The notes under the pieces were generated by a model, which saw nothing but the letters and a program-made list of their open reading frames with translations, had not been told where the DNA came from and searched no databases. Below are positions 866-36,894 of a DNA stretch of 58,820 bases, piece by piece. The translations under genes and the position numbers were made by a program. The DNA comes from Parcubacteria group bacterium GW2011_GWB1_40_14 (lineage in GTDB: Bacteria; Patescibacteriota; Minisyncoccia; Terrybacterales; GWB1-40-14). Positions within the stretch are counted from its first letter, which is position 1. Each line of letters opens with the position of its first letter. Location: assembly GCA_000996085.1 (NCBI GenBank), contig LBYG01000002.1, positions 1 to 58,820 of the forward strand. The letters run 5' to 3'.

Positions 866-2491
866 ATGATAAATATTTTAATCTCAGTAAGCATTTTTTT
901 AAGCGCATTTTTTATATCGGCACCGACTGTTTTTGCTCATGGTGAAATAGACATTACACAGATAGGACTACATGAGGGAGATATTGTACGTGCTAGTGAT
1001 GTGGCAGATCCCGACATCTTTATTATTAATCAGCAGGGATATAAGCGACTTTTTTTATCTCCTGCTATTTTTGGTTTATATGCTCATTTACGTTGGGATA
1101 ACGTAAAAGCAATTCCAAAAGCGTTATTGGATGCGATGCCCACATCAGGATTATTTCGTAACTGTGAAATAAATGATTATAAAGTACATGCGTTAGCGAC
1201 AACCGGAGAAGATGAAGCGTCTCTGCATTGGGTAAATGTAAGCGGCGATAACGCAGCAGAAGCCGATGACGATTTTTTTGAGAAAGTTTTTTGTATAAAT
1301 ACACGGGAATTCCAACATTATATATCCGCTTCAGCATATAGTTCTTTGTCGCAGATACCTTCTTATTCCCGCGCATCTGTTTTACCCGGAGGCGTTAATT
1401 TAACTACTATGCCCTTGGTACTTCCTGATGGTTATAGTATTTCTTTATTTACGCCACAAGCAGTAGGCCCGTTGCGTTTTATGGCTTTTTCACCGGACGG
1501 TATTTTGTTTGTAAGTATGTCAAGTTCCGCGGGTTTGTATTCATCGCAAAGTCAGGATGACGGAAAAATTTTTGCTATCCCTGATAAAAATAAGGATGGT
1601 GTTGCGGATCAGGCAACCGCAGTATTGACAAATTTACACCTTCCGCATGGCATTGCATTTTATAACAATTATTTATATGTAGCCGAAGAAGGGAAAGTAG
1701 TGCGTTACGCGTATCTTGGTGACTCAAATTTAGGAGCGAGAGAAGTAATTGTAACAGATCTTCCGACTGCCGGAGAACATCTTTCGCGTACAATAGGTTT
1801 TAGTCCTTCGGGTAAAATGTATATTTCGATGGGTTCTTCGTGTAATGTGTGCGAACAAAGCAATTCACATTTTGCTACTGTTCGTGAATATAATGCGGAC
1901 GGGACAGGCGGTCGGGTTTTTGCTACAGGATTAAGAAACACGGTAGGCTTTACTTTTAACCCGTCAACGGCAGAAATATGGGGAACGGATAATGGAAGAG
2001 ATTATCTTGGAGACAATCTTCCGCCGGACGAAATAAATATAATTAAAGATGGGGGAAATTATGGGTGGCCCAATTGTTACGGAAAGAATATCCATGACAC
2101 GGATTTTGATAAGAACATCTATATCCTGCTTTATCCGCCGCTTCCTTGTGGCGACAAAGAGCCTTCACTCTTCGATCTTCAAGCGCATTCTGCCGCATTG
2201 GGTTTGCGCTTTATAACGGCGCAGTTTTCAAGTTTATGGCAGGGAGATCTTTTGGTTGCGTATCACGGTTCTTGGAACAGAAGCCAATATACAGGATATA
2301 AAGTTGTAAGGCTTGATGTTGAGGGTAACAGCGTTATTGGAGAATACGATTTTATTTCTGGTTGGTTACGGCCTGATGCTTCACGTTTAGGCAGGCCGGT
2401 TGATGTTATTTTTGATAGTGACGGCGTCTTATATATTTCTGATGATAGAGCCAACGTTATATATCGCGTTTCGAAGATTAATCCCGTTTAG
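866..2491 (+). CDS. Secreted PQQ-dependent sugar (glucose/sorbosone) dehydrogenase-like beta-propeller protein with an extra N-terminal module
   Basis: Signal peptide. GSDH-family motif GLRNTVGFTFNP..IWGTDNGRDYLGDNLPPDEINIIKDGGNYGWPNCYG. TATAAT at 852-857 lies 8 nt upstream of the ATG. Confidence 0.75.
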   Translation: MINILISVSIFLSAFFISAPTVFAHGEIDITQIGLHEGDIVRASDVADPDIFIINQQGYKRLFLSPAIFGLYAHLRWDNVKAIPKALLDAMPTSGLFRNCEINDYKVHALATTGEDEASLHWVNVSGDNAAEADDDFFEKVFCINTREFQHYISASAYSSLSQIPSYSRASVLPGGVNLTTMPLVLPDGYSISLFTPQAVGPLRFMAFSPDGILFVSMSSSAGLYSSQSQDDGKIFAIPDKNKDGVADQATAVLTNLHLPHGIAFYNNYLYVAEEGKVVRYAYLGDSNLGAREVIVTDLPTAGEHLSRTIGFSPSGKMYISMGSSCNVCEQSNSHFATVREYNADGTGGRVFATGLRNTVGFTFNPSTAEIWGTDNGRDYLGDNLPPDEINIIKDGGNYGWPNCYGKNIHDTDFDKNIYILLYPPLPCGDKEPSLFDLQAHSAALGLRFITAQFSSLWQGDLLVAYHGSWNRSQYTGYKVVRLDVEGNSVIGEYDFISGWLRPDASRLGRPVDVIFDSDGVLYISDDRANVIYRVSKINPV

Positions 2492-2611
2492 AGGCAATCT
2501 CATCGTCTCTTATTATTATCGAATTTAAAAACAAATTATTTTTTTTGCTAGATTTACGCTTGATTTACGGAAATGCTTTAATAAAGTATTTCCTGCCTCT
2601 AACGGGATTAA
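2478..2611. repeat. Inverted-arm element, family 2, copy X1
   Basis: Arms TTAATCCCGTTTAGAGGCA and TGCCTCTAACGGGATTAA. Internal hairpin at 2569-2593. Confidence 0.7.
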
Positions 2612-4105: not shown

Positions 4106-4112
4106 TTTTATG

Positions 4113-4250
4113 CCAGGTAGTGAAAATTCGACTGTTCGCTAAGCGAACAAGGCTACTTAGAGCAATATTATAGTTTTAATCTATTACTTTTTAAATATTA
4201 ACTATTAGAAAGAAGTTCGATAGTTTGAATGTCGAATTTCTACTACCTGG
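4113..4250 (+). repeat. Inverted-arm element, family 1, copy A (between TATG flanks)
   Basis: Arms CCAGGTAGTGAAAATTCGAC and GTCGAATTTCTACTACCTGG. Hairpin GTTCGC-taa-GCGAAC. TATG at 4109-4112 and 4251-4254. Confidence 0.8.
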
Positions 4251-4251
4251 T

Positions 4252-4971
4252 ATGGAGTTTGATATTTTCAAAAAATATCCCAACTTAAAATACGGTATTT
4301 CAAAAAAGAGGCACGGTTCGTTAAAAAAAATTACCGCAGATTTTAATTCTGCGGATATTTTTAGAAGAAATGAAAAGGATTTTTTAACCAGAGAGGGGAT
4401 TAAAGATTCAAAAATATATGAGCTCAAGCAAGTTCACGGAAATAAAGTTTTGAATTCAGAGAATATAACCGGTAACGCTACTTTTGTTGCCGATGCTTTG
4501 GTTACCAATGCACCAAATAAAGTTTTAACTATTACCGTTGCCGATTGTTATCCAATTTATCTTTTTGATCCTACCCGCAAGATCGTTGCCATTGCTCACG
4601 CGGGTTGGCGGGGCATAACGAAAGATATTTTATGCAATGTTATAGATTATTTTGTTTTAAAGTTTTCTTCTGATCCGCAAGATATTTTAGTCGGCATAGG
4701 TCCCGGGCTGGGCAAATGCCATTTTGAGGTCAAGGAAGATGTTTTGGACAATTTTACTGCATATCCTGAAGAAATCGAACATAAAAATGGGAAAATTTTC
4801 GTTGATTTGCCCGCTATTTTGGAGAAAAAAATGCTTGAACGAGGGTTAAAGCGGGAAAATATAGAATTTTCCGGTTTGTGTACTTATTGCGAGAACGGAA
4901 AATTTTTTTCCCGGCGCAGAGATAAGAATTCCGACGAGGTAATGATGGCTTATATTGGAATGACCGTTTAA
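4252..4971 (+). CDS. pgeF: Peptidoglycan editing factor PgeF / YfiH (DUF152, laccase-domain) protein
   Basis: Motifs AHAGWRG, CHFEV and CTYC..FFSRRRD. ATG 4252 is preferred over the TTG at 4225, which lies inside the repeat arm. Confidence 0.85.
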   Translation: MEFDIFKKYPNLKYGISKKRHGSLKKITADFNSADIFRRNEKDFLTREGIKDSKIYELKQVHGNKVLNSENITGNATFVADALVTNAPNKVLTITVADCYPIYLFDPTRKIVAIAHAGWRGITKDILCNVIDYFVLKFSSDPQDILVGIGPGLGKCHFEVKEDVLDNFTAYPEEIEHKNGKIFVDLPAILEKKMLERGLKRENIEFSGLCTYCENGKFFSRRRDKNSDEVMMAYIGMTV

Positions 4972-5221: not shown

Positions 5222-8200
5222 ATGTACAGTTTAATTCTTTCTAAGCAAAAACGGGTTGTTCCGGCTTTTGTTGTCGCCGTTCTTATAAGCGCGGCTTTTA
5301 TTTTTGGTATTATCTTTAATGCCAAGGGTGCTACTTTTAATATCACCTCACCTTCAGGAGGAACGTGTTATGTTTACGGAACATCTATTCCGATCTCCTG
5401 GACAGCTTCTACGTTACCAGGCGTAAATCATTACGCTGTTTATTACACAACCAATGACGGATCAACTAAAACTTTGATTCCCGGAGGCCATCCTGTGACC
5501 GGAAATTCGATTTCTTGGACTCCGGAAACTTCTGTTATTGGTTTTCCGATAAAAATTGTAATTGATGGACACGATTCTGCTCACACTACTCTTGAGTCAG
5601 CAATGTCTTCTACATCTTTCGGCGTAAGTACATCTTGCGGCGGAGGATCAAGTGCGCCTCCTGTTCCCGGTACAATTGCCGGAGCGCCAAGCGGAACTGT
5701 TGGAACTTCTTATAATTTTTCTGTAATACTTTATTCTGATCCTGACGGTCAGCAAGTGCAGGCAGTTTTTGATTGGGGTGACGGTTCATCTTTCGGTTAT
5801 TCAACTTTTATTACTCCTTCAGGCGGAGGAACTTCTACAACTCCGATTGGGCACGTTTGGAATACATCGGGAACTTATTATGTAAAAGCTAAAGCAAAAG
5901 ATTCGGGTGGTGCAGAATCCGGGTGGACTTCAACTTGGGCAATAACTATAAGCGGTGCCACCGGTTGCAGTAGCGTTCCACCCGCACCTTCAAGTTTGAC
6001 AGCGACCCCTTCATCAAGTCAGGTAGCATTGAGTTGGCCGGTCGTAACATGTGCGGATAAATATAATATTTATCGCCGCAGTCCTGCCAGCACGGGAACA
6101 TGGTCTTATGTACTGCAAGTAACTACAACGTCGCACTCTGATAGTTCTTCGATATCTCCCGGCTCCTCTTATGATTATAAAGTTGAATCTTGTTTAAGTG
6201 GTTATGGTTGTTCCGGCAATTCCGATAATTATGCTTATGCGTACAATGTACTTATTCCTGGTGGTACTGATACTACTGCGCCGACTGCACCAACCGGACT
6301 TACCGCGACCCCGTATTCTGTTTCACGGATAGATTTATCCTGGAACGCATCTACAGATAATGTGGGGGTTACAAATTATAAAATTTTCCGCAACAGCGCT
6401 TTTTGGTATCAAACCTCAGCGCTTTCTTATGCAGATACGGGCTTAACAAGTAATACGACTTATTCTTATTACATTAAGGCTGTTGATGCGGCAGGAAATG
6501 AGTCTACTGCCAGCGCTACGGCTTCGGCTGTTACGCCAAGCGGTACCGCATCATGTACCGGTTTATCGCTTACATTTGCAAACAATGACACCTCTTATGT
6601 CATCGGGGATATGGTTACATATACCTATATCTGTATTCCTGGAGGAACTGCGCCTAACGTTACGGTTCAGGTGGTTAGTCCCGGTGGTACTGCGACAACA
6701 TATAATACAGCAACCAATGTAAGCCAAAATACTCTAGGTTTTAGCACTTCAAATCTTTCTGCGGGCGACTACACATTGCGTGCTTGTTTTACCTCAAGTT
6801 GTTCTCCGGTTACGGTAAGCGCTGTGTTTTCTGTTGTGTCCGGCACTACAGGTGATAATACAGCTCCTGTTATTTCTAATTTAGGGGAACAGGATATTAT
6901 CGGCATGGGCGCAAAAGTAAAATGGCTTACCGATGATCCGTCTGATTCTTTTGTCGAATACGGTACCAGTTTTGGCAATTACACCAATAATTCAAGTTCC
7001 TATTGTTATGGTTCAGGTTTGGTTACAGATCATTGTTTGTATCTGACAAATCTTACTCTTAATACGACATATTTTTATCGGGTAAGATCTGTTAATGCGG
7101 CAGGACTTCAAATTCAGGCTACCGGCGATTTTCAATCTGCATCAGGAACAGATACTTCGGGCGTGCCACCTACACCGACCAATTTTCGTTTAGAGCCGGC
7201 TCCGGTGTCTTCGCCGACTCCGACCATATATTTAAAATGGAATGTTTCAACGGATGCGGATAAATATAATTTAAGCCGCAGTCAGCACGGACTTAACAAT
7301 TGGACGTATTTCCCGCAGTTGATGGGCAACACAAATACTTCATACGCCGATTCAAGCGTTGGAGTGAGCGTTTATTATGATTATCGGGTAGAGGCATGTC
7401 ATTCGGGTTATGGTTGCTCTACATCAAGCGCATACCTTACGAATGTTTCTGTCGGTGGTACCTCAACTACAACAACACAAAACGGTTCGGTCTCAGGGAC
7501 TGTTAAAACTTCAAGTGGCGTTGCTGTTGCGGGAGCTAATATAAATATAAGGAGTTCTGACAATGTTTATAATTTTTACACAACCGCAGCTTCGGATGGT
7601 ACATATCATTTTAATAATTTGTTCCCTTATTCTTATATTTTAACCGCATATCCTCCGTCTAATAGAACCGATCTTTCTCCTTCAAGCGCTCAAAGTGTTT
7701 CTATTGCAGCCGACCAAAATACCGTACGTGATTTGCAGTTAATTTCCGGAACAAAGATTTTGACAGGAAAAGTTTTAAGAAACGATGGACGCGCTGTAAC
7801 ATATGCTGAGGTTGGGGCTTGGCGCGCCGATGGTCAGCCTGGAGGCGGTATGGCAGCAACTGATTCAAACGGTAATTATTCTATTACTTTAAGCGGCGGC
7901 AAATGGAATGTTTCGGTTCATCCTTCTTCCGCTTCTGTCTCAAGCGCCGACTGGTTTTATAATTCTGAACCGACGCTTATAGAGTTTATTGCAGACAGTA
8001 CGACCGAAAACAAAAGCGTTAATTTTACTGTTGCATCCCAGAGTTCATTTATAATTGGTTCCGTAAGATATCCCGACGGCAGTATCCCTCCTGCTTCTTT
8101 GAGCAGTGTCGGTTTCTTTAACTCAACTACACGTATTGGCGCAGTAAGTTCAATAGCCGCAGACGGGACTTTTAAGGTTGCTATTGCCGCGGGAACATAT

Positions 8201-11149
8201 CAAGTCGATGTTTATATTACCGATCCGACATTATATGCTCCTATTTTGGGTTCGGTTTCTGTTTCTGACGGTCAAACTAAAGATTTGGGAATAATCACGT
8301 TGAAAAAGAAAAGCGAACTTATCCGCGGTCGTGTTTACGGACCAAACGGTGAAGGTGTCGGTGGCGCAGAAGTTAAAGGTTATTTGTCAGGGACGACTAA
8401 TTCTATTGTAGCGCTTACCAAATCAGACGGATCATATGAACTCAATGTTACAGCTGGTACTTGGAACATAGGTTTGAATCCCAATACCTTGGGTGGTTAT
8501 GCGTATAATGGAGCAGCGCGTAGTATTGCTGTTGCTGCGGGATCAACCGTTTCTTCTGTTGATTTCGCTTTGAGTAAAGCCGGTTCAGTTTTATCCGGTA
8601 ACGTTGTTGATGCATCCGGACAAATAATCACGGGTTTTTATGGGCATGTTGGTGTAATGCCGCAGGATGGATTCGGGACCTCTACTCAAGGTTATTACGG
8701 ATATGCGGAATTCGGCGCATTTACAATTGCGCTTCCTCCGGGAAATTATAACGTACAGGTATATCCTGCTTACGGTTCAAATTATTCTCCAAGCGCTTCG
8801 GTGCCTGTAACTGTTTTATCGGGAACAACCGCTAAGGTTTTAGTAAAGATAAACGCCGGAAACAGTATTATACAGGGCACCATTAGAAATTCTGCCGGCA
8901 GTCCAATAAGCGGAGTAAAGATGAAAGTATTTGTTTCAAATAATAAAGGTGTTTGGAATGAGACAGATGTTAATACGACAAGCGGAACATATAAACTTTC
9001 ACTTTTTGCTGATTCTTGGCAGTTGGGTTTGAGAGTTGACGGTTCAGGATATATTCCCGGTTCACTTTTATCTGTGAATCTTATTTCGGGTCAGACACTT
9101 ACTCAGGATATTGCTGTTAGTGCCGCAAGCTCAACGATAATTGGGAAAATAACTTCTCCTTTGGGTGCGGGGGTAGCCAATGTTCAGGTTTCAGCTGATT
9201 ACAATAGTTTTAGTCAGCCGTTAACTACATCTTCTTTCATAAATTCTTTCAGAGCTACAACTGACGCGAGCGGAAATTATAAAATTGCTTTGTTGCCGGG
9301 GACTTATTATCTGCATACTTATGTAAGTTCGGGCGGCGAATTTATAGGTTCTGAAGAGAAAACCGTTATGGTGGTAGCAGGAGAAACCAAAACGGTGGAT
9401 TTGGTTTTGAGATCACCAAATCTCACGATATCCGGAAAAGTATTTGAGGGCGGGCAAGGCAGGCCGGCATTTGTATGGGCATGGGGTGAAAGCGGTGGTG
9501 GTTTTAGTACTACTGCATCTTCAGACGGCTCATACGTGTTGAAATTAAGTCCGGGAAAATGGAAGGTCGGAGCCTCTTATGAACGCGATCAAATATTATT
9601 TAAAGCGTCCGAAATCGCAATAGAACTATTTTCCGGAGAGAATAAATCATTAGATATATTCTTAATTGATTCACGGATTTTCTTGTCTGCTCCTATAGTT
9701 AAAACGGGCACTACGTCTACCGATCAGGTTGTTACAAATGAAACAGGCGTAAGCATTAATATTCCATCAAACTCTATTGCTGTGACAGGATCTGTAACAG
9801 TAACCCTTTCTTCATCGACAGATGCGCCTTCGCAGGGTACTGCTAACGTTATTGGTGTTGCGTATGAAGTTGAAGTTAAGGATGAAAATGGTCAGGCAGT
9901 TACAACTCTTAATGTTCCGGCAACCGTAAGTATTCCTTACAATGAAACATTAATAAGCGCAGGCGAAGAAGCATTTTTGGATCTGGCTTTTTGGGATGAA
10001 GCGCTGGGCGCTTGGCAAGATGTTACTTCTACCGTGGTAGATACAAATAACAATATTATTACCGGTTCAGTAACTCATTTGACTAGATTTGCTATTGTGC
10101 GTCCGGCCGATATCACTCCTCCTGCGTCGCCTTCTACTGTTCGCGCTCAAGTGTCTGCCGATAAAATAACTTTCAGTTGGATCAATCCAAGTGCTGATTT
10201 CCATAGCGCTAAAGTTTATCGCTCCACGGTTGCGGGAGAAAAAGGCAGCAAGGTTGCCGAAAATATTACACTTGCAAATTGGTCCGATTCTTCGGTGCAG
10301 AATGGCACGAAGTATTATTACAACATTAAATCAGTAGACTTAGCCGGAAATGAATCTACGAGTCTTGCACAAACCGCTGTAATAGCTGGAGAAATTTCTT
10401 CATCACAAACAGTTGGTCCTTATCCTTCAGGCACTTTGTTCAAAGTCGGAAGTAATCCTACGGTTTGGTATGTCGATAACGGTAAACGTCGTGGTATTCC
10501 ATCACTAGGGGTTTTTGAATCAAGATTTGATTGGAAGAACGTAAAAAATATTACAGACGCTACTCATACTGAACTTTATACCGAAGATTCCGCAATAGGT
10601 TATCCTGACGGCCTGCTTATTAAGGGTAGCGCTCCGACAGTTTATATTATTGCTGATGGCAAAAAACTACCCGTTACAACAGCCGAAGCATTCAATGCTT
10701 TGGGATATAAGTGGGAAAATATCCGTACCGTAAATGATTCAGAATTAAGCCTGCATTCGACCGGAGCCAGCTTATCGACAGCCGTAAGTTATCCAAGCGG
10801 ATCATTAATACAGAAAGAAGGGGATCCAACAGTATGGTTTGTAGATAATGGTGTTCGAAGAGGCATTCCGACGCTCGATGTATTCAATATACGGAAGCTT
10901 GATTTCAAGAGAGTCATTAAAGTCCTTTCTTCTGTGCTGGAAAGCATTCAAATAGGCAACGCGCTGGCATATCCGGATTATACTTTGATTAAGGGCTCCG
11001 CTCCCGAAGTTTATTTTGTTGAGGGCGGAAAGAAGCGCCACATTACTTCCGGTGAAATATTTAATACCAACCAATTTGATTGGGCGGCAATAAGAAATGT
11101 ACCAGATAGCGTATTGAATCTGATGGTCACAGGCAGCAATTTGGAATAA
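5222..11149 (+). CDS. Giant (1975 aa) secreted surface protein with PKD-like, several FN3, ~12 CarboxypepD_reg-like Ig/beta-sandwich repeats and 4 C-terminal ~40-aa modules
   Basis: Signal/anchor VVAVLISAAFIFGIIF. PKD-like FDWGDGSS..HVWNTSGTYYVKAKAKDSGGAES. FN3 LSWNASTDNVGVTNYKIFRN..YSYYIKAVDAAGNES. Repeated G.V....G..V.GA.V motifs. Confidence 0.85.
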   Translation: MYSLILSKQKRVVPAFVVAVLISAAFIFGIIFNAKGATFNITSPSGGTCYVYGTSIPISWTASTLPGVNHYAVYYTTNDGSTKTLIPGGHPVTGNSISWTPETSVIGFPIKIVIDGHDSAHTTLESAMSSTSFGVSTSCGGGSSAPPVPGTIAGAPSGTVGTSYNFSVILYSDPDGQQVQAVFDWGDGSSFGYSTFITPSGGGTSTTPIGHVWNTSGTYYVKAKAKDSGGAESGWTSTWAITISGATGCSSVPPAPSSLTATPSSSQVALSWPVVTCADKYNIYRRSPASTGTWSYVLQVTTTSHSDSSSISPGSSYDYKVESCLSGYGCSGNSDNYAYAYNVLIPGGTDTTAPTAPTGLTATPYSVSRIDLSWNASTDNVGVTNYKIFRNSAFWYQTSALSYADTGLTSNTTYSYYIKAVDAAGNESTASATASAVTPSGTASCTGLSLTFANNDTSYVIGDMVTYTYICIPGGTAPNVTVQVVSPGGTATTYNTATNVSQNTLGFSTSNLSAGDYTLRACFTSSCSPVTVSAVFSVVSGTTGDNTAPVISNLGEQDIIGMGAKVKWLTDDPSDSFVEYGTSFGNYTNNSSSYCYGSGLVTDHCLYLTNLTLNTTYFYRVRSVNAAGLQIQATGDFQSASGTDTSGVPPTPTNFRLEPAPVSSPTPTIYLKWNVSTDADKYNLSRSQHGLNNWTYFPQLMGNTNTSYADSSVGVSVYYDYRVEACHSGYGCSTSSAYLTNVSVGGTSTTTTQNGSVSGTVKTSSGVAVAGANINIRSSDNVYNFYTTAASDGTYHFNNLFPYSYILTAYPPSNRTDLSPSSAQSVSIAADQNTVRDLQLISGTKILTGKVLRNDGRAVTYAEVGAWRADGQPGGGMAATDSNGNYSITLSGGKWNVSVHPSSASVSSADWFYNSEPTLIEFIADSTTENKSVNFTVASQSSFIIGSVRYPDGSIPPASLSSVGFFNSTTRIGAVSSIAADGTFKVAIAAGTYQVDVYITDPTLYAPILGSVSVSDGQTKDLGIITLKKKSELIRGRVYGPNGEGVGGAEVKGYLSGTTNSIVALTKSDGSYELNVTAGTWNIGLNPNTLGGYAYNGAARSIAVAAGSTVSSVDFALSKAGSVLSGNVVDASGQIITGFYGHVGVMPQDGFGTSTQGYYGYAEFGAFTIALPPGNYNVQVYPAYGSNYSPSASVPVTVLSGTTAKVLVKINAGNSIIQGTIRNSAGSPISGVKMKVFVSNNKGVWNETDVNTTSGTYKLSLFADSWQLGLRVDGSGYIPGSLLSVNLISGQTLTQDIAVSAASSTIIGKITSPLGAGVANVQVSADYNSFSQPLTTSSFINSFRATTDASGNYKIALLPGTYYLHTYVSSGGEFIGSEEKTVMVVAGETKTVDLVLRSPNLTISGKVFEGGQGRPAFVWAWGESGGGFSTTASSDGSYVLKLSPGKWKVGASYERDQILFKASEIAIELFSGENKSLDIFLIDSRIFLSAPIVKTGTTSTDQVVTNETGVSINIPSNSIAVTGSVTVTLSSSTDAPSQGTANVIGVAYEVEVKDENGQAVTTLNVPATVSIPYNETLISAGEEAFLDLAFWDEALGAWQDVTSTVVDTNNNIITGSVTHLTRFAIVRPADITPPASPSTVRAQVSADKITFSWINPSADFHSAKVYRSTVAGEKGSKVAENITLANWSDSSVQNGTKYYYNIKSVDLAGNESTSLAQTAVIAGEISSSQTVGPYPSGTLFKVGSNPTVWYVDNGKRRGIPSLGVFESRFDWKNVKNITDATHTELYTEDSAIGYPDGLLIKGSAPTVYIIADGKKLPVTTAEAFNALGYKWENIRTVNDSELSLHSTGASLSTAVSYPSGSLIQKEGDPTVWFVDNGVRRGIPTLDVFNIRKLDFKRVIKVLSSVLESIQIGNALAYPDYTLIKGSAPEVYFVEGGKKRHITSGEIFNTNQFDWAAIRNVPDSVLNLMVTGSNLE

Positions 11150-14093: not shown

Positions 14094-14150
14094 GTAATTA
14101 TGCTAAATATTTAGCCGGTTCTAGTTTTCAATAAAGCCAGGATTGGCTTT

Positions 14151-14279
14151 GCCTCGTTAGAAATTTACAAAATTATTAGAATCGATTGGAAATATTTTAT
14201 AGAAGATGTGCTTGCTTTAGCGAGAAAAAGCCGTGGCTTTTTCTCGCTATTAACTTTAAACGTAAATTTCTAACGGGGC
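14151..14279. repeat. Inverted-arm element, family 2, copy X3
   Basis: Arms GCCTCGTTAGAAATTTAC and GTAAATTTCTAACGGGGC. Internal hairpin AGCGAGAAAAAGCC-gt-GGCTTTTTCTCGCT at 14219-14248. Confidence 0.7.
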
Positions 14280-14280
14280 T

Positions 14281-14310
14281 TTGACTTTTTGGCCTTTTGG
14301 GTATTACAAT
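14281..14310 (+). promoter_or_regulatory. Candidate sigma-70 promoter TTGACT-N18-TACAAT upstream of secD
   Basis: Hexamers at 14281-14286 and 14305-14310. The -35 abuts the right arm of X3. Confidence 0.4.
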
Positions 14311-17080: not shown

Positions 17081-17146
17081 TTCTAAACGGGATTGACCAT
17101 AAAGGATTATTAAGGTAGTCTATAATTCGTTAATTACTTAAAGCTT

Positions 17147-21627: not shown

Positions 21628-22542
21628 TTAAACCCAACGTTTAAATTTGAAGAAAAAGAAAGTTATAACCGTTGAGATTACAACTATAGATGTGACAACC
21701 GCAAAACCATCCGGGTTTTCGCTGAACGGAATATTTTTCAGGTTCATACCGAAAAGAGCGGGAATTATAGAGGGGATCAGCAGAAGAGTAGCATATACGG
21801 CAAGTAAGCGGATATTTTCATTGGTTTTTGTTGATAGAAGGGAATAATTTGTTTGTTCAAGAGTTGACATTGTTTCTTTCTGAGTAACTAAAATATTAAT
21901 TAATCGTGAGTGGGATTCGGCAACGTATTCAAGATAAGGACGCGCGTCTTTTCCCAATAGGGTAGGGCCGGAAACCAATAGATCCTTAAATAAAATTTGC
22001 ATTGGCTCAAGTGTGCGCATGAAATCAATTATTTTTCTTCTTATCTGAGAAATAACCAAAACTATATTTTGCTCTCGGCCTCGGAATATTTCATCTTCAA
22101 TAAAAGCTATTTGCTCTTCAATATTATCAAGTTCTGCGTTTACATTTTCAAATAGTCCGGCAATAAGTCCTTGTATTACCGCTGCCGGTCCGGCTTCAAA
22201 ATATTCCCTTCTGGTTTCTTGTGAGGCCATGCATTTTCCAAAAAAATCACTGACAAAAGGTAATCGGCTCGTGTGACTGGTAATAAGCCAATTTGCGCTT
22301 ATTACCAAATCCAGTTCTTCTATTCTTAATGTTGTACCGGCGCCGTCTTTTTCAATAGGTATTTGTAAGGCTACAAAAATATAATTTCCAAAAACATCTA
22401 TTTTTGGATGACGTGTAGGCAAATTAATATCTTTTATGACCAGAGGATGTAGATTAAATTCTTTTTGTAACCAGGCAATATCGTCTGAACTCGGATTGTC
22501 CAGGTTAACCCACGTCAGATCAGGGTCACGAAGTATTTTCAT
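21628..22542 (-). CDS. corA: CorA-family magnesium/cobalt transporter
   Basis: C-terminal two TM helices with the GMN signature (ALFGMNLKNIP). Confidence 0.8.
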   Translation of the reverse strand: MKILRDPDLTWVNLDNPSSDDIAWLQKEFNLHPLVIKDINLPTRHPKIDVFGNYIFVALQIPIEKDGAGTTLRIEELDLVISANWLITSHTSRLPFVSDFFGKCMASQETRREYFEAGPAAVIQGLIAGLFENVNAELDNIEEQIAFIEDEIFRGREQNIVLVISQIRRKIIDFMRTLEPMQILFKDLLVSGPTLLGKDARPYLEYVAESHSRLINILVTQKETMSTLEQTNYSLLSTKTNENIRLLAVYATLLLIPSIIPALFGMNLKNIPFSENPDGFAVVTSIVVISTVITFFFFKFKRWV

Positions 22543-22683
22543 CCCGTTAGAGACAGGAAGCGCTTTTTACGGAAGAGATTAAAGCGCTTCCGTAATATTG
22601 CGTTTGATCCTGTAAAAAATTTACTATCTACAAATAATTATTAAAAAATTTATAATTTCCCGTTAATTTGTCTCTAACGGGAT
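22541..22683. repeat. Inverted-arm element, family 2, copy X2
   Basis: Perfect 15-nt arms ATCCCGTTAGAGACA and TGTCTCTAACGGGAT. Internal hairpin 22556-22591 with an alternative pairing. Confidence 0.7.
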
Positions 22684-22739
22684 TCGTGATTTTATTATAT
22701 CATTCTGATGAATTTGGGACAGCGTTTATGGGTACGGGA

Positions 22740-22767
22740 TTGACACCTTACCCTATTTTTATATAAT
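22740..22767 (+). promoter_or_regulatory. Near-consensus sigma-70 promoter TTGACA-N16-TATAAT for the hrcA operon
   Basis: Hexamers at 22740-22745 and 22762-22767. Confidence 0.6.
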
Positions 22768-22775
22768 GCCTTGTA

Positions 22776-22802
22776 TTAGCAGTCTTACTACTTGAGTGCC
22801 AA
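22776..22802 (+). promoter_or_regulatory. CIRCE-like HrcA operator TTAGCAGTC-N9-GAGTGCCAA
   Basis: Matches the CIRCE consensus TTAGCACTC-N9-GAGTGCTAA at 16 of 18 positions. Lies between the promoter and the hrcA ATG. Confidence 0.65.
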
Positions 22803-22809
22803 AACATAT

Positions 22810-23547
22810 ATGTTTATTTTAACGCCCAGACAACAGAATATTCTTGATGCTATTGTAGAAAAATATATAAATGGCGCCTTACCGATAAGTTCTGATTTTT
22901 TGCGTCGTGAAGGTGGATTTGATTTTAGCGGAGCAACGATAAGAGCAGAAATGGCCGAACTTGAAGCGAGAGGCTTTTTGGTTCAACCCCATACTTCTGC
23001 CGGAAGAACGCCGACTGAAAACGCATATCGTCTTTTTGTTGAACAGCATTCTAATAAGTGGGGTCTTTCTGAAAAGATACGCGAAAAATTCGGGCAAATT
23101 TCCAGATTATGGTCCAAAAATAAACTTGCCGCTTTGGAAACTGCCGCCGATGATATTGCCGGATTTTCTCAAGTAACAAGCATGGTTACATTGACATGGA
23201 ACGATCAGGCTGTTTTTTTGCAACGATTTAGAGATTTTCGTCTTCAGCCCGAATTTTCTTCTCCGGATATCGTCGGTGAGATGTTGTCTGCAATTGAAAT
23301 ATTGGAAAAGAGGCGTAATGAAATTTTGAATTCCGCAGACGCTAATAGAACTTCGGTATTTATCGGAAAAGATATCAAGTTTGGAAAGTTTAATTTTTTG
23401 AGTTTAGTGATACGACCATGGCGGAATAGAAATTCTAGAGCTTCCGGTTTTATCGCAACGGTTGGTCCTTTGCGTATGCATTATGAACGGGCTATTCCCA
23501 CCATAGACTATCTGGGTTCAGTGTTATCTGAGTTTACGGAGGAATAA
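22810..23547 (+). CDS. hrcA: Heat-inducible transcription repressor HrcA (short, ~245 aa)
   Basis: N-terminal winged helix (LTPRQQNILDAIVEKY..ELEARGFLVQPHTSAGRTPT). ATG 22810 is preferred because the TTG at 22792 lies inside CIRCE. Confidence 0.8.
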   Translation: MFILTPRQQNILDAIVEKYINGALPISSDFLRREGGFDFSGATIRAEMAELEARGFLVQPHTSAGRTPTENAYRLFVEQHSNKWGLSEKIREKFGQISRLWSKNKLAALETAADDIAGFSQVTSMVTLTWNDQAVFLQRFRDFRLQPEFSSPDIVGEMLSAIEILEKRRNEILNSADANRTSVFIGKDIKFGKFNFLSLVIRPWRNRNSRASGFIATVGPLRMHYERAIPTIDYLGSVLSEFTEE

Positions 23548-26104: not shown

Positions 26105-26241
26105 CCAGGTAGTGAAATTCGACCGTTCCGCTAAAAGCGGAACAAAAGTATCTGGCAAACAATACAATAAAATTAATAAATAAAAGTTTAAACACGAAAT
26201 TCGTTAATTAAAAATGTAAAAGTCGAATTTCTACTACCTGG
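26105..26241 (+). repeat. Inverted-arm element, family 1, copy B
   Basis: Arms CCAGGTAGTGAAATTCGAC and GTCGAATTTCTACTACCTGG. Hairpin GTTCCGC-taaaa-GCGGAAC. TATG flanks at 26101-26104 and 26242-26245. Confidence 0.8.
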
Positions 26242-28413: not shown

Positions 28414-28938
28414 TTGGAAAATATTCCGCAATTTTCTTCTAGTTTAACGCTATCCGGATTAAGCTGGGATATCGCGGCTATATTTTTTGTTGCCATTTTA
28501 ATTTTTCTTTTCGGATTAACTTCAGGAAGAGACCGTCTATTAGCTTTGCTGTTGTCTTTGTATGCAGCTTCTACCATTGCAAGTACCAGCCCTCAAGTAC
28601 TCTCTGTTTTTGTGGAATACGGTATACGCGTTTCATCATTTACTAAACTCGAAGTTTTTATAGTTCTATTTTTATTGTTGAGTTTTTTATTGTCGGGAAA
28701 AATATTTTTGAACATTTTTCAGTTTTCTGCCGAGGGTTTGAAAAGTTTGTGGCAGGTTATAGTATTAAGTTTATTAATAGCAGGGCTTTTCATTAGTTTG
28801 TTTTTGCAGTTTTTACCGTATAATACTCTTGCTATTTCTTCTGGAGTCGCTTATATTTTTAGAGACGGTTTAGCCCCATTTTTATGGGCGGCAGTGCCGG
28901 TTTTGTTTCTGATTTTTTTGCGCGTAGAAGGGGAGTGA
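28414..28938 (+). CDS. Small polytopic membrane protein (TTG start, start uncertain)
   Basis: Five hydrophobic segments. No family recognised. Confidence 0.45.
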   Translation: MENIPQFSSSLTLSGLSWDIAAIFFVAILIFLFGLTSGRDRLLALLLSLYAASTIASTSPQVLSVFVEYGIRVSSFTKLEVFIVLFLLLSFLLSGKIFLNIFQFSAEGLKSLWQVIVLSLLIAGLFISLFLQFLPYNTLAISSGVAYIFRDGLAPFLWAAVPVLFLIFLRVEGE

Positions 28939-28940
28939 GT

Positions 28941-29151
28941 GAATATTTTGGTTTTACTTAACGCTACAGCATTAGGCAAAAAGAGGTTTCGTGCCTACGC
29001 GAATTTGCGAAGCAGGCCGCCCTAAGACGACTAATGCTTCGCTGGGCTCAGCAAAGTCGTCTTAAGGTGCGTTTCCTTTTTCGATAAATTCGCTGGCACT
29101 TAGTTCTTTTTTGCGCTAATGCCTTCGCTAAGTCGTAAAACCAAAATATTC
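28941..29151. repeat. 211-nt near-perfect long palindrome
   Basis: Perfect 17-nt termini GAATATTTTGGTTTTAC and GTAAAACCAAAATATTC. Complementarity continues to the centre (CCCTAAGACGAC / GTCGTCTTAAGG). Confidence 0.7.
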
Positions 29152-29239
29152 GCTTATGGAAATAAAGATGTAATCCCGATCATATATCGGGATACCAAAA
29201 TTTTGATTTTTGAATTTTGCATTTTGACTTTATTATAAT

Positions 29240-29312
29240 GCCCCCATAGCTCAATTGGCAGAGCAGCTCCCTTTTAAGGAGAAGGTTGAAGGTTCGATTC
29301 CTTCTGGGGGCA
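29240..29312 (+). tRNA. tRNA-Lys (anticodon UUU)
   Basis: Cloverleaf. Acceptor GCCCCCA/TGGGGGC. D arm GCTC-AATTGGCA-GAGC. Anticodon loop CTTTTAA. T arm GAAGG-TTCGATT-CCTTC. No encoded CCA. Confidence 0.9.
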
Positions 29313-29382
29313 CAAAGCTGTGCAGGGTTCTGGAGACCGCGATTCCCGCCTTGCATGAGCGACCGACATGGTCGCAGCAAAT

Positions 29383-29426
29383 AAAAAAAACAACGCGATG
29401 GAATTTTTCTCTCGCGTTGTTTTTTG
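29383..29426. terminator. Bidirectional terminator A8-AACAACGCGA..TCGCGTTGTT-T6
   Basis: 10-bp stem flanked by A and T runs, just 3' of the recombinase gene. Confidence 0.7.
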
Positions 29427-29438
29427 TTGCTTCCGTGA

Positions 29439-30782
29439 CTACCGGCTTCCTTGCCGTTCAAGCGCGATTATTTTGTCCTTGAGAATCAGCCGGCTTCTCA
29501 GATTCGCGAGCAGTTCGCGTTTTTCGGATATCGTTCCCTCGGTGAGAAGATATATTGCATAGGATTTTGCGTCGAATTCTTCGGGCTCGATATGTTCCTT
29601 GTTTTTCCCGAGCGCTATCCTCCTGAACTTGTTATACCGCGTGATCTCTTCTTTGAACTTATGTCTGACGCCAAGCTCGTCTATGTCCAGCGCGTCAAGA
29701 AGCGTTATGATCTGGACAATGATTTCTTCTTCTCTGATGTAGCTTACCTTGCAATATGGATCTTTGGCCTTGGTGCAGGAGTAATACACATAGCGGTGCG
29801 TGTTCCCATTCTTCTGATGCTTGTATTTCTCTCCAGCCGTTATTCCCGAGCCGCAGAGTCCGCAGGAGATGAGCTTCGTGAACGCGAATTCCTTGTTGTT
29901 TTTACGTATCTCGCTGCGGACTACTTGTGCCTGCACTCGGTCGAACAGCTCTTTAGCGATGATGGGTTCATGCCGTCCAGTGTACCAATTGCCGCTTCCG
30001 TCGGGATATTCAAAGACGCCGTAGTAGAACGGCTTCTTGAGGATCATATAGATATTGCTTAGGGAAAGGGATTTGCCGTACTTCGTTTTGAATTTCATCT
30101 CGTATTTGAGCCATTGGTAGATCTTTCTGCCGGACCAGCTTTCATTTGCCACCTTCTCGAACATTTGTTTGACGATCGGGCCCCGTATCGGGTCCACGAT
30201 CACTTCGCATGGCCTGTCCGTGCGTTTTTCGTTCAGATATCCCGTGGGAGCCACGGATGGCCGCAGCCCTTGCTCGCATCTCGTCCGAAGTCCCCGTTTT
30301 ACGTTTTCGCTCTTGTTGTCGTTTTCGAGTTTCGCTGTTGAGCAGAGAATCATCAGCATGAATTTTTCGCTCGGGTTGTTCGTAAATTTCTGGCTGAAGG
30401 TGCGTATCTCGATTAATAGCTTTTGGTCCATGAGATCGACCAGCGATCCCAAGTCTCCGGCGTTGCGCGAGAGGCGGTCAGGCGCCCACGTCAGGATGCC
30501 GTTGAATTTGGCAGAGCGGATATCAGCAAGGAGGGAGTTGAATATTTCCCGCTGGCCGACCGCTTTTGCCGAGTGGCTTTCTTTTCTGATCTCCGCTATC
30601 TCAAGTCCGTCCCGTTCCGCTATCTTGGTCATTTCATTGATCTGGCTGTCTATCGAGAGGATCTGCTGTTCCTCGCTCTCGGTCGACTTCCGGGCGTAGA
30701 GGCAATATTTAACTTTTGCTGGGAGTTGTTCCTTTGTTTGGGTCCTAGCTCCCTTGGACTCCGTAATGGTTGTGTTGTTCAT
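29439..30782 (-). CDS. Large serine recombinase (resolvase/invertase catalytic domain, recombinase domain, zinc ribbon, coiled coil)
   Basis: Catalytic motif YARKSTESEEQQILSIDSQ. Zinc ribbon CGLCGS..YYSC..C. Start taken at MNNTT (30780-30782); the listed ORF extends to 30896. GC content is visibly higher than in the flanks. Confidence 0.85.
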   Translation of the reverse strand: MNNTTITESKGARTQTKEQLPAKVKYCLYARKSTESEEQQILSIDSQINEMTKIAERDGLEIAEIRKESHSAKAVGQREIFNSLLADIRSAKFNGILTWAPDRLSRNAGDLGSLVDLMDQKLLIEIRTFSQKFTNNPSEKFMLMILCSTAKLENDNKSENVKRGLRTRCEQGLRPSVAPTGYLNEKRTDRPCEVIVDPIRGPIVKQMFEKVANESWSGRKIYQWLKYEMKFKTKYGKSLSLSNIYMILKKPFYYGVFEYPDGSGNWYTGRHEPIIAKELFDRVQAQVVRSEIRKNNKEFAFTKLISCGLCGSGITAGEKYKHQKNGNTHRYVYYSCTKAKDPYCKVSYIREEEIIVQIITLLDALDIDELGVRHKFKEEITRYNKFRRIALGKNKEHIEPEEFDAKSYAIYLLTEGTISEKRELLANLRSRLILKDKIIALERQGSR

Positions 30783-30887
30783 ACAACACATTGGATGACG
30801 CAAAGGCTCAAGTGAGTCCAGACCAATAGTAATCTTTACGGGGTTTGTTAAAACGAGTCGGTTCAGTTTGTGATAGAATGAATTTAT

Positions 30888-33800
30888 ATGGCACATAAAA
30901 TATCAATTTCAAATTTAGTTATTAAATTCGGCGCCATCTTTTTTGGCGTGTTTTTGTTTTTACCGTTCACCCACGCTTCTGCTTTTGAAGACGATATATT
31001 TCATGTACCCGGCAGTGTTTCTGGTATCGATACCCATTTTGAAGTTATCGATAGCGCTTATCTCAACCTTGTTCTTGACAGTTCAGAAGAAATTAAAGTT
31101 AGTTTGGATTCAATACCGCAGATGATTTTACTAAATATTGAACCAACCACTACAGCCACTAGCACAAATATTTCATTTTCGGGTTTAGAACCCAACCACA
31201 CCTATTATAAATACCAAGACGACTATCACAACGAAACCATTATACAAACCACCGCTTCGGGCCAATATTCATACACCCAAGACATTTCTACGCCTCACTT
31301 TATCTTCATCCAGCCAACCACTGGCACAAAATTCATTAGTGATAACGCAACAGGAGGCGATTGCGTCACTATTGGTAATTGGAATTCCGCAACAAAAACT
31401 TGCACGCTTACAGGTAATATTAATCAAACCATTCAAATCGACAGCAATGGCATAACCTTAGATGGCGCGGGTTTCACCAACAGCGGTTCAAACAGTTTTG
31501 GCGTGTATATTTATCAGAAATCCGCAATTACGATACAAAACGTTACTATTTCTGGATTTAGTATCGGAATATTCACTAATGATGCCACTAATATCACGAT
31601 AACAGAAAACCAGATTGTATCAGGCAGCCATGGAATAGTCATACAAGATAGCTATGGCGCTGTTATAACGCACAATGCCACTTCCGGGTTTTGCAGCGGA
31701 ATAACAATTGATACTTCAGGCAGTATTATTACAGACAATAACTTTACCTCTTTTGGGGGATGCGCTGGAATGATAATTCTCGGCTTTAATCACAATATTC
31801 AAAACAATATAAGCATAAGCGAAGGGGTGGGTAATGGCGGCTCTTTCAATATCCGCGGAAATACGACTATCAAGAATAACGTGTTTAAAGCGGGCGATGG
31901 CTATGCTGATATGTTTATTGACGCCGGTACCGATGCCGATTGTCGTAACGCCACAATTGAAAACAACAATGGCACAGACAACGCGCCTCTTGTCTTTGTA
32001 AACAGTTTGTCTTCCATCACCAATCAAACCTTTTCAGAGCTCATACTTTGCGACGCGGACGGCTCTCATATAAGCAATGTACAAATAGAATCTTCAGGAC
32101 ACAGAAACGGCATATTTTTACAACATACAGACAATACCACGATAGAAAATACCATTTCGTCTAATAATCTCCATGGTATATTTGTGAACTACTCGCACAA
32201 TAACCGTTTTATTAACAATACGTTTTCAGATAATCTCGATAATGGCATACGCATGCACAATTCAGAAGGCGCCGCTATTAACGGAAATAGTATTGTCGGA
32301 AACACGAAGAACGGCATTTTTTCGCATTCGTCCTCCAGTTTAAATCTTTTAGTGCCTAATGAAATTTATAACAACACTATTACAAATAACGTCGTAGGTA
32401 TAGACTTAACGTCTACGTCAGCAAATATATACAACAATAATCTTGTAAATAACCACACAGGAATTCTAGCGCAATATCATTTAGGGGTCGGCTCATATAC
32501 CGTATATAACAATAATTTTATTCAGAATGCCGTTCAGGCTGTCGTTTTCGGCGGTTCTGCCACCTTTAACCTTAGCCAGCCTACCGGAGGCAATTATTGG
32601 AGCAATTATGATACTCCTGCTGAAGGCTGCAATGACGCAAACAGCGATAACTTTTGCGACGCGCCTTATATTTTCTCCGGAGATCAGGATAATCTTCCCT
32701 GGATTATACAGGATGGTTGGACACAAACTACACCTACGCTTTCTAATTTAAACCAATACAAGTCAGACGGAATAACAACCATACCAGAAGAAGATATAAC
32801 TATAGAAGATATAATAACCTTCAAAGCAACCCTAAATAGTCCTCAGGACCTAAACCTTAAGCTACAAGTAGAACTGCGCCAAATAACCGAATCCTTTACC
32901 GGAACCTTTGACGGAGGAATAATTGAGTCCCCGTTTGTACCTTCAGGACAAGAAGTAGCCATTACACGCTTTGGCCTAGTAGACGCACAATATCACTGGC
33001 GCGCACGCGCAGTTGACACAAACGGCAATATCTCCGACTGGCAAGAGTTTGAAGTAGGAGGGAATGTTGATTTTGAGATTAAAAAAACAATACCAATAGA
33101 CATAGCTGTTATTTTGACTGAACCATCTAATGTGCCTCACGAATCAAGCGAAATAACAGCACAACCCTGTAAATTAATACCTGAAAAAATATACCCGAAT
33201 GGCCATAACATAGATTACTTCCAGGATCTTGCCTTTTGTGTTGAGGATTATCATAGAGAGAACTCTTTTGGAATTGTGGACCTTAATTTTGAGTTTTTTG
33301 ATAATGGTGGAGAGTGGTTTAAATTAACTACACTGCCATCTTCAGCAAAGCAATTGGTATTAGATACAGTGAGTGTAAGCGGCTTAGACTTAAATCAATT
33401 TGACATTGCGGGTATCATATATGCAGGCGACGAATCACTTTTTGGAGCTTTAACATGGACGCCAATTAATCAACCCTTTCAACCAATTGACGACAACCCT
33501 TTTGTTTTTGTTGCCGCAGAAACAAGGTTCACCGGAACGTGGGCTCATGAATTCGGTCATATAATAGGAGAATTAGTTATACCACCTCCAGATAACACCA
33601 TGCTGCCCGATCTATATGAAATGGGAAATGTGGGCAATTGGGATCTTATGGCAAGTGGTTCCCGAAATGAAAATGGGGGCAACCCGCCGCATATGAGCTC
33701 TTACCTTAAAGAGTTTTTGCAATGGATGCGTTACGACATTCACGCAAAATCAGATTTCGGCGAATTTTGGATAAATTCTCTTGATTCAAGCAAATTGGGC

Positions 33801-36474: not shown

Positions 36475-36753
36475 GGCGTCTTGGAGGCACAGTGCATTCT
36501 GTGAGACAGTCCGAAAACGGTCTTTCGGTGTCTCATTTGTCTCATTTTGATTCAAAAAGTTACACGTCAATGTATCGTTTTGGTGTAACGTTTGTAACTT
36601 TTTGTACCAAAAGGAAGCGCAAGAATGGAACACGGAACACCCTTTTATAGTGTTCCGTTTGTTCCATTTTCGGTTTTCGACCCAGACCGAGAGGCCTCAG
36701 TTCTTCGCGGGAAAATCATCCGTAAAATCGCCTTATAATGTTTAGTAACTATA

Positions 36754-36810
36754 GGTTCTAGACCGTGTAGGGGCATAACGCTGAGTGCGGTTCAAGACCA
36801 TGTAGGGACA
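36754..36810 (+). repeat. Two 22-nt direct repeats with a 35-nt period
   Basis: GGTTCTAGACCGTGTAGGGGCA at 36754-36775 and GGTTCAAGACCATGTAGGGACA at 36789-36810. 18 of 22 positions identical. Confidence 0.6.
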
Positions 36811-36894
36811 CAAAAAATTTCGTATTTGAGGCGATTTATTTTATAAAAGAGTCGCTTTGCGGATACAGGTTCTTTACAAGTTTTTTGGGAGCTC

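Follow-up and report, generated by a model that had tools for sequence, protein, structure and literature searches.

Contig LBYG01000002.1 of Parcubacteria group bacterium GW2011_GWB1_40_14, of which we analysed a stretch of 58,820 nucleotides (the window), carries four short repeated elements, X1 to X4. X1 lies between a dehydrogenase-like and a lysyl-oxidase-like gene, and X2, X3 and X4 lie upstream of secD, corA and infA, respectively. We call this set family 2, as the window holds three further elements of another kind, family 1. The closest named relatives of the window are Candidatus Terrybacteria (Parcubacteria). Genomes of Parcubacteria, and of the candidate phyla radiation (CPR) at large, are tiny, gene-dense and understood to hold little mobile DNA. 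X1 to X4 are very probably copies of a family of non-autonomous DNA transposons, or MITEs (miniature inverted-repeat transposable elements), of Parcubacteria. This MITE family was previously unnamed; it is ordinary in kind and unusual in behaviour and host range.

The four elements measure 123 to 141 bp and share the termini (T/C)CCCGTTAGA...TCTAACGGG(A/G). On the two strands of the window the exact 9-mer TCTAACGGG occurs five times, each time at an arm, against an expectation of 0.33 from dinucleotide-preserving shuffles, none of 100 of which reached five. An initial annotation of the window had described four copies with a common architecture (inverted arms, a hairpin beside one arm, AT-rich filler), and we recovered all four in place with that architecture. 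Their interiors sort them into two pairs: X1 (+) and X3 (-) have TTACGG-hairpin-CCTGyCTCTAACGGGA in common, while X2 and X4 share a hairpin GAGAAAAAG..CTTTTTCTC of a different type, which adjoins the gene-side arm and is terminator-like by a simple scan.

The predicted RNA fold of X1 (-35.3 kcal/mol, z = -5.75) closes the molecule with the arm helix and forms the hairpin at 2569-2593 exactly as annotated. The context of this hairpin had been likened to that of the copy at 14151; its true counterpart is the copy at 22541-22683 (X3), which is inverted relative to X1. A covariance model of the hairpin end, R1, matches only X1 (2566-2607, E = 2e-8) and X3 (22542-22594, minus strand, E = 1e-9) within the window. 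In the left arm of X1, a T bulge of 1 nt gives rise to the TAG stop (2489-2491), which the annotation had rightly placed within that arm. It was also right about the 12 nt that separate ATG 2624 from the right duplication. The arms of X2 show one C>T change, in the left arm, and the left arm of X4 two uncompensated changes. Coordinates of all copies are collected in Table 1.

Table 1. Copies of families 2 and 1 in the window, with target site duplications (TSDs), terminal inverted repeats (TIRs) and subterminal hairpins
Feature	Position	Strand	Description
X1	2482-2607	+	T..A ends, 126 bp; left TIR 2482-2496, right TIR 2594-2607
X1 TSDs	2478-2481 and 2608-2611		TTAA both; single TTAA in L149
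X1 subterminal hairpin	2569-2593	+	GGAAATGCTTTA-a-TAAAGTATTTCC; adjoins the TIR facing the lysyl-oxidase-like gene (ATG 2624)
X2	14152-14278	+	C..G ends, 127 bp; 18-nt arms; internal hairpin 14218-14249
X2 TSDs	14147-14151 and 14279-14283		CTTTG, 5 bp
X3	22542-22682	-	T..A ends, 141 bp; X1 subfamily, inverted relative to X1
X3 subterminal hairpin	22556-22591	-	stem GGAAGCGCTTT / AAAGCGCTTCC; 14 nt upstream of corA ATG
X3 gene-side TSD	22538-22541		TTCA (read as TGAA on the corA strand); ATGAA when joined to the terminal base of the element
X3 distal TSD	22683-22686		now TTCG; on the corA strand the former start-codon copy ATGAA has become ACGAA; L022 keeps TTCA
X4	49627-49749	+	C..G ends, 123 bp; 18-nt arms; hairpin 49697-49719
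X4 TSDs	49623-49626 and 49750-49753		TTGA
Family-1 copy	4113-4250		CCAGGTAGTG...CTACTACCTGG; TATG at 4109-4112 and 4251-4254; on the start (4252) of a Cu-oxidase_4 gene
Family-1 copy	26105-26241		TATG duplications; on the start codon of ORF 26243
Family-1 copy	50072-50199		TATG duplications; on the rpmJ start codon (50201)

Empty sites and target site duplications

The contigs come from groundwater metagenomes; L numbers denote the comparison loci. Relatives with conserved gene order, whose SecD is 84%, 78-79% or 64% identical to that of the window, allowed locus-by-locus comparison, and those showing empty sites for X1 to X4 have 60-84% protein identity. In the filled sequences below, square brackets enclose the element. 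At the X1 locus, L149 is empty and reads ..TCTAAGCTTAATCCTTAAATTATG.. (junction AAGCTTAATCCTTAAATTATG), where the window has ..TCGAAGATTAA[TCCCGTTTAGA...TCTAACGGGA]TTAATCCTTAAATATTATG.. To judge from its position, X1 split a 3-nt gene junction and added 130 bp, hairpin end first, its end lying 16 nt upstream of the lysyl-oxidase-like gene. The dehydrogenase-like protein changed by one residue at its C-terminus, which reads SKLNP* in L149 and SKINPV* in the window, the TAG entering the frame because of the extra T in the left arm.

The other three loci tell the same story. L027 (SecD 84% identical) and L029 lack X2, and L027 reads ..CCGGCTTTGACTTTTTAACCC.. (junction CCGGCTTTGACTTTTT) with a single CTTTG, compared with ..GGCTTTG[CCTCGTTAGA...TCTAACGGGG]CTTTGACTTTTTGG.. 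in the window. The same two relatives lack X3; L027 reads ..TATTTTCATAATTTTATTATATC.. where, at the matching point, the window reads TTTTCA[TCCCGTTAGA...TCTAACGGGA]TTCG.. The X4 locus is empty in L155, which has an unbroken infA promoter, GGGTGTTGACATAC...TGATAATCTCGG, instead of TTGA[CCCTGTTAGA...TCTAACGGGG]TTGACAGT...

Insertions also accumulate at the same sites. L022 has a counterpart of X3, E_c, at the same corA site, and the corA-hrcA spacer of L022/L024 is organized as TTCA-[E_a with E_b nested]-TTCA-[E_c]-TTCA; another copy, with TATG on both sides, lies between secD and secF. L154 has an X4-like copy at the same TTGA and a second, partial element upstream. In L156 (~1961-1994) the X4 site shows a 26-nt perfect palindrome, TCCCACACATAAATTTATGTGTGGGA, between two TTGA, which may be what an internal deletion has left of a T..A element, or the footprint of an excision.

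Empty sites, duplications and nested or tandem insertions together show the arms to be terminal inverted repeats of mobile DNA. They do not support a conserved RNA helix, which the initial annotation implied when it ascribed the closing helix to covariation. Filled and empty loci, the latter with a single copy of the duplicated bases, demonstrate mobility, and the elements are small, without transposase coding capacity, with an AT-rich, unconserved interior, as expected of MITEs. Strain variants of the window organism have perfect 18-bp arms (L003 for X2; L159 for X4, CCCCGTTAGAACTTTGCG), so the arm mismatches of X2 and X4 in the window are recent and uncompensated. Such mismatches had been named beforehand as the mark of plain MITE decay.

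Ends, target and arm covariation of the family

We scanned metagenomes with the pattern CCCGTTAGA-N95-125-TCTAACGGGR and obtained at least 119 loci; 133 elements were scored among the matches listed, and all counts out of 133 below refer to these elements, found by their intact ends. Since copies are related by descent, counts and p values on them are not independent. From the outer end of one core to that of the other, the elements span 60-166 bp, and copies are about 115-140 bp long with a stem-loop beside one end. The same pattern gave two matches in viral contigs, both to one identical GC-rich sequence without duplications, which we take as the noise level of the pattern. The motif occurs in none of the corresponding loci of species-representative genomes, the closest of which has a SecD 58% identical. 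Exact protein look-ups placed some loci in Nomurabacteria, Azambacteria and Kaiserbacteria, and the window itself in Terrybacteria. The same 9-bp core in four candidate phylum-level lineages shows a transposition system that is long-lived or widely exchanged, and it offers a ready marker for tracking strains in groundwater time series.

The 4-bp flanks are identical in 78 of the 133 elements, where shuffled flank pairing predicts 10.7, and differ by one base in 24 more. Identical 5-bp flanks occur in 4 of 133 (0.17 expected), and the CTTTG of X2 fits this minor class. The outer bases of the duplication follow T-N-N-A in 90% of copies, with a weak preference for a preceding A and a following T. 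The inverted repeat measures 13 nt, N-CCCGTTAGA-RRY, and ungapped complementarity falls to background past position 13. At its outermost pair, 63 copies have T..A and 64 have C..G.

Do the arms covary, as the initial annotation proposed? Positions 2-10 were set by the search pattern, so that only positions 1 and 11-13 are informative; there, bases are complementary within a copy in 86-95% of the 133 elements, compared with 45-56% across copies, and the arms form 18 distinct perfect combinations. The proposal that arms differ between copies yet stay self-complementary thus holds for the population, while in the window it fails in detail through the bulge of X1, the mismatch of X2 and the two mismatches of X4. 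Arm covariation is statistically real, but it is the covariation of transposon ends. Mismatch types, scored on the sense strand of the downstream gene, give A-C six times and G-U once, with no sign of RNA wobble tolerance, the numbers being too small for more. To the right of the window, in the same organism, two clearly related family-2 copies (L160 15596-15725 and 17394-17523) have changed both terminal bases in concert, T..A in one and C..G in the other. It is possible, judging by sequence alone, that some process copies one arm onto the other and keeps them identical.

This bears on the idea that the elements form a structured RNA family, either a cis-regulatory leader or a small RNA, with the arms as a functional closing helix and no mobility. 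The strong predicted fold of X1, the covariation of the arms at positions 1 and 11-13 and of the hairpin (below), and the constant orientation to the downstream gene would all fit. As a sole explanation, however, it is contradicted by the precise empty sites, the site-dependent 4-bp duplications and the nested or tandem copies, and it sits badly with the unrelated contexts in which copies are found (a coding 3' end, -35 boxes, start codons), with the unconserved interior, and with population arm mismatches that are uncompensated and include the A-C excess over G-U. No Rfam family matches either: at the gathering threshold the whole window yields tRNA-Lys only, and for X1 at E <= 10 there are only chance matches far below threshold, in line with the earlier failure to match the elements to a named RNA family. 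We regard this explanation as highly improbable.

A second alternative is that the elements are REPIN-like doublets (paired repetitive extragenic palindromes, REPs) moved by a RAYT transposase, of the HUH type and acting on single strands, or palindrome-associated elements of the IS200/IS605 type. Two short inverted conserved sequences about 100 nt apart with hairpins, the GTAG/CTAC found in family 1 and arms that evolve in concert, as would be expected of a single-strand hairpin substrate, all recall such systems. HUH transposition, though, proceeds without target duplication, whereas here site-variable 4-bp flanks match in 78 of 133 copies and empty sites hold a single copy of the duplicated bases. 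The only recombinase gene in the window encodes a serine recombinase, and no RAYT/TnpA gene was seen there. This origin appears very remote indeed.

Several observations nevertheless weigh against the MITE interpretation. The window holds no autonomous partner and no transposase gene for the family, and none lies beside unpaired arms or between distant arm pairs in about 1.3 Mb of loci: the open reading frames (ORFs) next to unpaired arms and to arm pairs 600-3500 bp apart encode enolase, dehydrogenase and similar proteins, one of them carbamate-kinase-like as judged by eye from its sequence. Presence or absence of family-2 copies is seen between species, not between strains. X3/E_c is common to the window and the more distant L022 and absent from the closer L027, a distribution that calls for either a precise excision or a hot spot hit more than once. 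Within a single genome most copies are only 50-70% identical, with their ends intact, which is partly an ascertainment effect, as the search used intact ends. As to transcription, the locus appears in none of the three metatranscriptomes of the study, which are tiny SOLiD data sets.

Start codons, promoters and the hairpin end

In 70 of the 133 copies an ORF (50 codons or longer, or running open off the contig) starts at the last base of the element. These comprise 55 of the 63 T..A copies, with ATG, and 15 of the 64 C..G copies, with GTG. Before insertion the site was A|TGNN; ATGNN persists in the left copy, and to the right the codon is rebuilt from the terminal A or G of the element and the duplicated TG. 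At corA, the terminal base 22542 of X3 is the A of the start codon (22542-22540, minus strand). Start-codon copies of the C..G type read ATGAA on the left and GTGAA on the right, which shows a duplication of 4 bp and assigns the terminal base to the element; for the same reason we reject a 5- or 6-bp duplication with an asymmetric element. Deposited proteins begin at the rebuilt codon in four of six exact look-ups.

Among copies with a TGAA/TTCA duplication, 34 of 35 lie at a start codon. As a background, these loci have 1317 TGAA sites that are not interior to an ORF, of which 154 (11.7%) coincide, as A|TGAA, with the predicted start of an ORF (binomial p ~1e-30, on copies that are not independent). 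A second register, YATG, places the whole ATG inside the duplication and is used by all three family-1 copies of the window. The rpmJ start codon has received a family-1 copy in the window and a family-2 copy in L156; in L154 and L155 it is empty, with 20-28 nt of free spacer upstream.

Promoters are the other kind of initiation site. Insertions into -35 boxes are seen for X4, for an unrelated copy in L081 and, by 5 bp, for X2, the box being restored on the gene side. The right duplication of X4 is the first four bases of the infA -35 box TTGACA (49750-49755; TTGACA-N16-GATAAT), and that of X2 extends into TTGACT (14281-14286), the -35 box of the secD promoter (TTGACT-N18-TACAAT). From their position, X2 and X4 would lie directly upstream of intact secD and infA promoters. 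Two further site types were considered: TTTA|C sites as -35 boxes are not supported (a -10 box at the right spacing in only 6 of 31, compared with 9% of controls), and TAAA sites as stop codons are represented by a few cases only.

In the window (17085-17098, 22733-22745, 49617-49628) and in L156, L027 and L155, GGG(A) often comes before the -35 box, for example in ACGGGATTGAC; the element end CGGG(A/G) followed by a duplicated TTGA reproduces this context. The 'solo right arm' that the initial annotation had listed at 17081-17097 reads TCTAAACGGG, with an extra A, and we do not count it as a copy. This stretch (ACGGGATTGACCATAAA...) is kept in a relative as the secF-rplU region, with a promoter-like TTGAC box, and it is probably promoter sequence of the secF-rplU spacer in the same GGG(A)-before-(-35) context.

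A strong -10 box lies 5-11 nt upstream of the ATG in 19 of 69 insertion-site genes and in 97 of 856 control gene starts (Fisher p = 4e-4). This is leaderless-type spacing, and many target genes look leaderless. Shine-Dalgarno-like motifs are rare in both sets (6 of 69 and 142 of 856). At the 856 control starts, drawn from the 119 listed metagenome loci, -10 boxes peak 6-8 nt before the ATG, as also seen in L027 at ~8200-8220. Many Parcubacteria genes thus appear to be leaderless, Shine-Dalgarno-like motifs being found at only 17% of control starts. In the empty relative, corA has a TATAAT box 6 nt before its ATG, a leaderless arrangement. To judge from its position, X3 replaced the whole corA upstream region, so that corA in the window must be read from a transcript crossing X3.

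T..A copies present a hairpin of the form GGnnnnn-loop-nnnnnCC, followed by T-R-Y-Y and by the inverted repeat, which ends directly at the ATG. Across 39 distinct matches to the covariance model the stem is 97.5% paired, with 62 two-sided changes compared with 21.5 in shuffles (none of 500 as high), in an alignment that was itself fitted to the structure model; slid controls of this alignment are only 34-59% paired. The subterminal hairpin is a genuine conserved structure, and covariation of the structural type is found there. The motif beside the hairpin occurs 29 times at the gene-side end and once at the far end, and all four copies of the window obey the rule that the hairpin points to the gene. 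This orientation toward the downstream gene suggests an oriented insertion mechanism or a role in the expression of that gene. At the corA site, X3 and E_c of L022 are ~90% identical over the arm and hairpin and have diverged elsewhere, which hints at constraint on this module in place; alternatively, the two could be independent insertions at a hot spot.

It is therefore conceivable, if doubtful, that the host has taken over the hairpin end of what is a MITE by origin as an expression module, an idea that would add a function to the MITE interpretation. The start codon on the far side of the element would open a short frame (MNPVR...) through it, and ribosomes would re-start on the rebuilt codon, the frame stopping at the TAA in the near inverted repeat (TC-TAA-CGGG-ATG) or at an ATGA overlap, with the hairpin protecting or positioning the mRNA. 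The far-side ATG is intact in 54 of the 70 start-codon copies, and its frame stays open from one end of the element to the other in 23 of these 54, compared with 16 of 162 antisense frames, which serve as the control because the duplication and the inverted repeat close the other frames and make them invalid. The frame ends 7 nt before the start codon in 15-16 copies, overlaps it in five and fuses with it in frame in three. The strong stem covariation, the 29:1 orientation, the conserved arm and hairpin at corA and the scarcity of Shine-Dalgarno-like motifs at these genes also favour such a role. On the other hand, the far-side frame meets early stops in over half of the copies; X3 and one family-1 copy of L159 now have ACG in place of the far-side ATG, which leaves no short frame; and the descent of the copies and the fitting of the hairpin alignment affect the counts as stated above.

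The far-side start codon has changed from ATG to ACG in two independent insertions, X3 (22683-22687) and a family-1 copy at the RRF gene (L159 16612-16618). This suggests selection against a leftover start codon in this species.

How would MITEs of this kind spread? A transposase encoded elsewhere would act in trans, bind both ends and insert the element at a staggered 4-bp cut (rarely 5 bp) in a TNNA target, giving the direct duplication. Copies would land, or survive, where the duplication and the element end restore the feature that was cut: start codons at A|TGNN sites, where a terminal A or G remakes ATG or GTG (X3 at corA), and promoters at TTGA|C in -35 boxes (X4 at infA, and X2 at secD); X1 would have landed in the last codons of the dehydrogenase gene. 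Reuse of the same site beside a resident copy, and decay of resident copies, are seen directly in the loci compared. The CCC-type ends and the TTAA-like 4-bp target may indicate a DDE-type transposase, piggyBac/IS1380-like, and we offer this as a lead only.

The start-codon bias and single orientation could reflect targeting of initiation sites, selection for a translatable geometry, or both. The open far-side frames (23 of 54) argue for selection; early stops and the ACG changes argue against a strict requirement of that sort. A bolder possibility, which we put forward tentatively, is that families 1 and 2 are actively directed to translation and transcription initiation sites and repair them as they insert, the hairpin end being a portable leader. 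The terminal A or G would then remake the start codon, and the terminal CGGG-N with TTGA the -35 context. If true, this would be a site-directed, self-healing MITE across Parcubacteria. That half of the listed copies rebuild start codons with near-uniform orientation, and that two families do so in two registers, makes the tolerance or use of insertions at initiation sites in compact genomes directly testable, and bears on the expression of genes without Shine-Dalgarno sequences or leaders. For annotation, start codons, small genes (infA, rpmJ) and promoters beside such elements are easily miscalled.

Other elements of the window and known repeat systems

The resemblance that the initial annotation had seen between the two families is plausible: both begin with CC, have TAGAAATT, make 4-bp duplications and occupy start-codon sites. 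Its count of seven or more elements also holds, with four family-2 and three family-1 copies. The Cu-oxidase_4 gene beside the first family-1 copy has its true start at 4252 and not at the TTG at 4225. Empty sites exist for the copy at 4113 in L149 and for that at 50072 in strain L159 and in L154 and L155, and family-1 copies are present or absent between strains 98.5-99.6% identical (L159, L160). At the infA-rpmJ position that a family-1 copy occupies in the window, L159 (~4240-4365) carries an unrelated insert of ~130 nt; downstream of rpsI it has an extra segment of ~140 nt repeating the rpsI 3' end (CCGCAATGGGCGAAACG). The small genes infA (~49853-50068) and rpmJ (50201-50315) were missed by the 80-aa ORF list. 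Directly 3' of the infA promoter (TTGACA-N16-GATAAT) is a hairpin (49781-49809) kept in L154, L155 and L156, which we take as a probable 5' leader structure of infA and not as a terminator. The hrcA promoter, a perfect TTGACA-N16-TATAAT (22740-22767), is followed by a CIRCE-like inverted repeat, TTAGCAGTC-N9-GAGTGCCAA (region 22740-22810), and in L022 the space from CIRCE to the hrcA start holds a family-1 MITE.

Between ORF 28414-28938 and tRNA-Lys there is a third inverted-repeat element (28938-29154), whose 20-nt arms are 95% complementary (AGTGAATATTTTGGTTTTAC / GTAAAACCAAAATATTCGCT) and stand 177 nt apart; it may represent another MITE family. The region that follows (29240-41427) looks like a mobile element integrated at a tRNA: after tRNA-Lys (29240-29313) comes a gene for a large serine recombinase, on the minus strand (29439-30896), and then genes for a 1605-aa beta-helix/NosD-like protein, for a sigma-70 region-4 protein (37009-38073) and for a coupling protein of the TraG/TrwB-like kind (39577-41427). 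In 46703-49611, some homologs of a 561-aa protein (47926-49611) have the domains Baseplate_J (PF04865) and PF21110; this appears to be a phage-tail-like or contractile-injection gene beside alaS.

Our literature search found no paper describing MITEs in CPR/Parcubacteria. The closest parallels in kind are Correia elements (CREE/NEMIS) of Neisseria, ERIC and RUP, which are non-coding, ~100-150 bp long and bounded by terminal inverted repeats, and which duplicate a short target. Many Correia-type MITEs are intergenic near gene starts, form long hairpins when transcribed and can affect the expression of neighbours. Family 2 is like them in size, non-coding nature, inverted repeats and short duplication. 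Correia elements, however, have a TA duplication and 26-bp repeats, where family 2 has TNNA (4 bp) and a 13-bp repeat. Unlike Correia elements, family 2 has half of its listed copies on a start codon, which its terminal base rebuilds, and a covarying hairpin at one end that faces the gene (29:1), and its hosts are CPR/Parcubacteria.

IS1380 elements make 4-5 bp duplications and have ends in CC. In piggyBac phylogenies IS1380 transposases are the prokaryotic outgroup (PMC10813416). The piggyBac elements themselves duplicate the 4-bp TTAA, occasionally TAAA or TATG, and their inverted repeats begin with CCC (CCCTT, CCCTC, CCCAT) (PMC10813416). Family 2 likewise has a 4-bp T-N-N-A duplication and ends in N-CCCG...; unlike piggyBac, the two middle bases of its target are free and one variable base precedes CCC. 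On present sequence evidence we read this likeness as a resemblance, not as membership.

With REP/REPIN sequences, family 2 shares short conserved inverted sequences that form hairpins, abundance between genes and the concerted evolution of its arms. REPINs, which need a RAYT gene, leave their target unduplicated, in contrast to the site-specific 4-bp duplications seen here. Finally, the mycobacterial interspersed repetitive units (MIRUs) and the palindromic elements of Rickettsia are small repeats that are tolerated as reading frames stay usable: MIRUs carry short ORFs overlapping the stop and start codons of flanking genes, and the Rickettsia elements are in-frame insertions within proteins. 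MIRU-like, in family 2, is the short frame that crosses the element to reach the rebuilt start codon. MIRUs, however, are tandem direct repeats without inverted ends or target duplications and, unlike both MIRUs and the Rickettsia elements, family 2 lies between a duplicated start codon and its gene.

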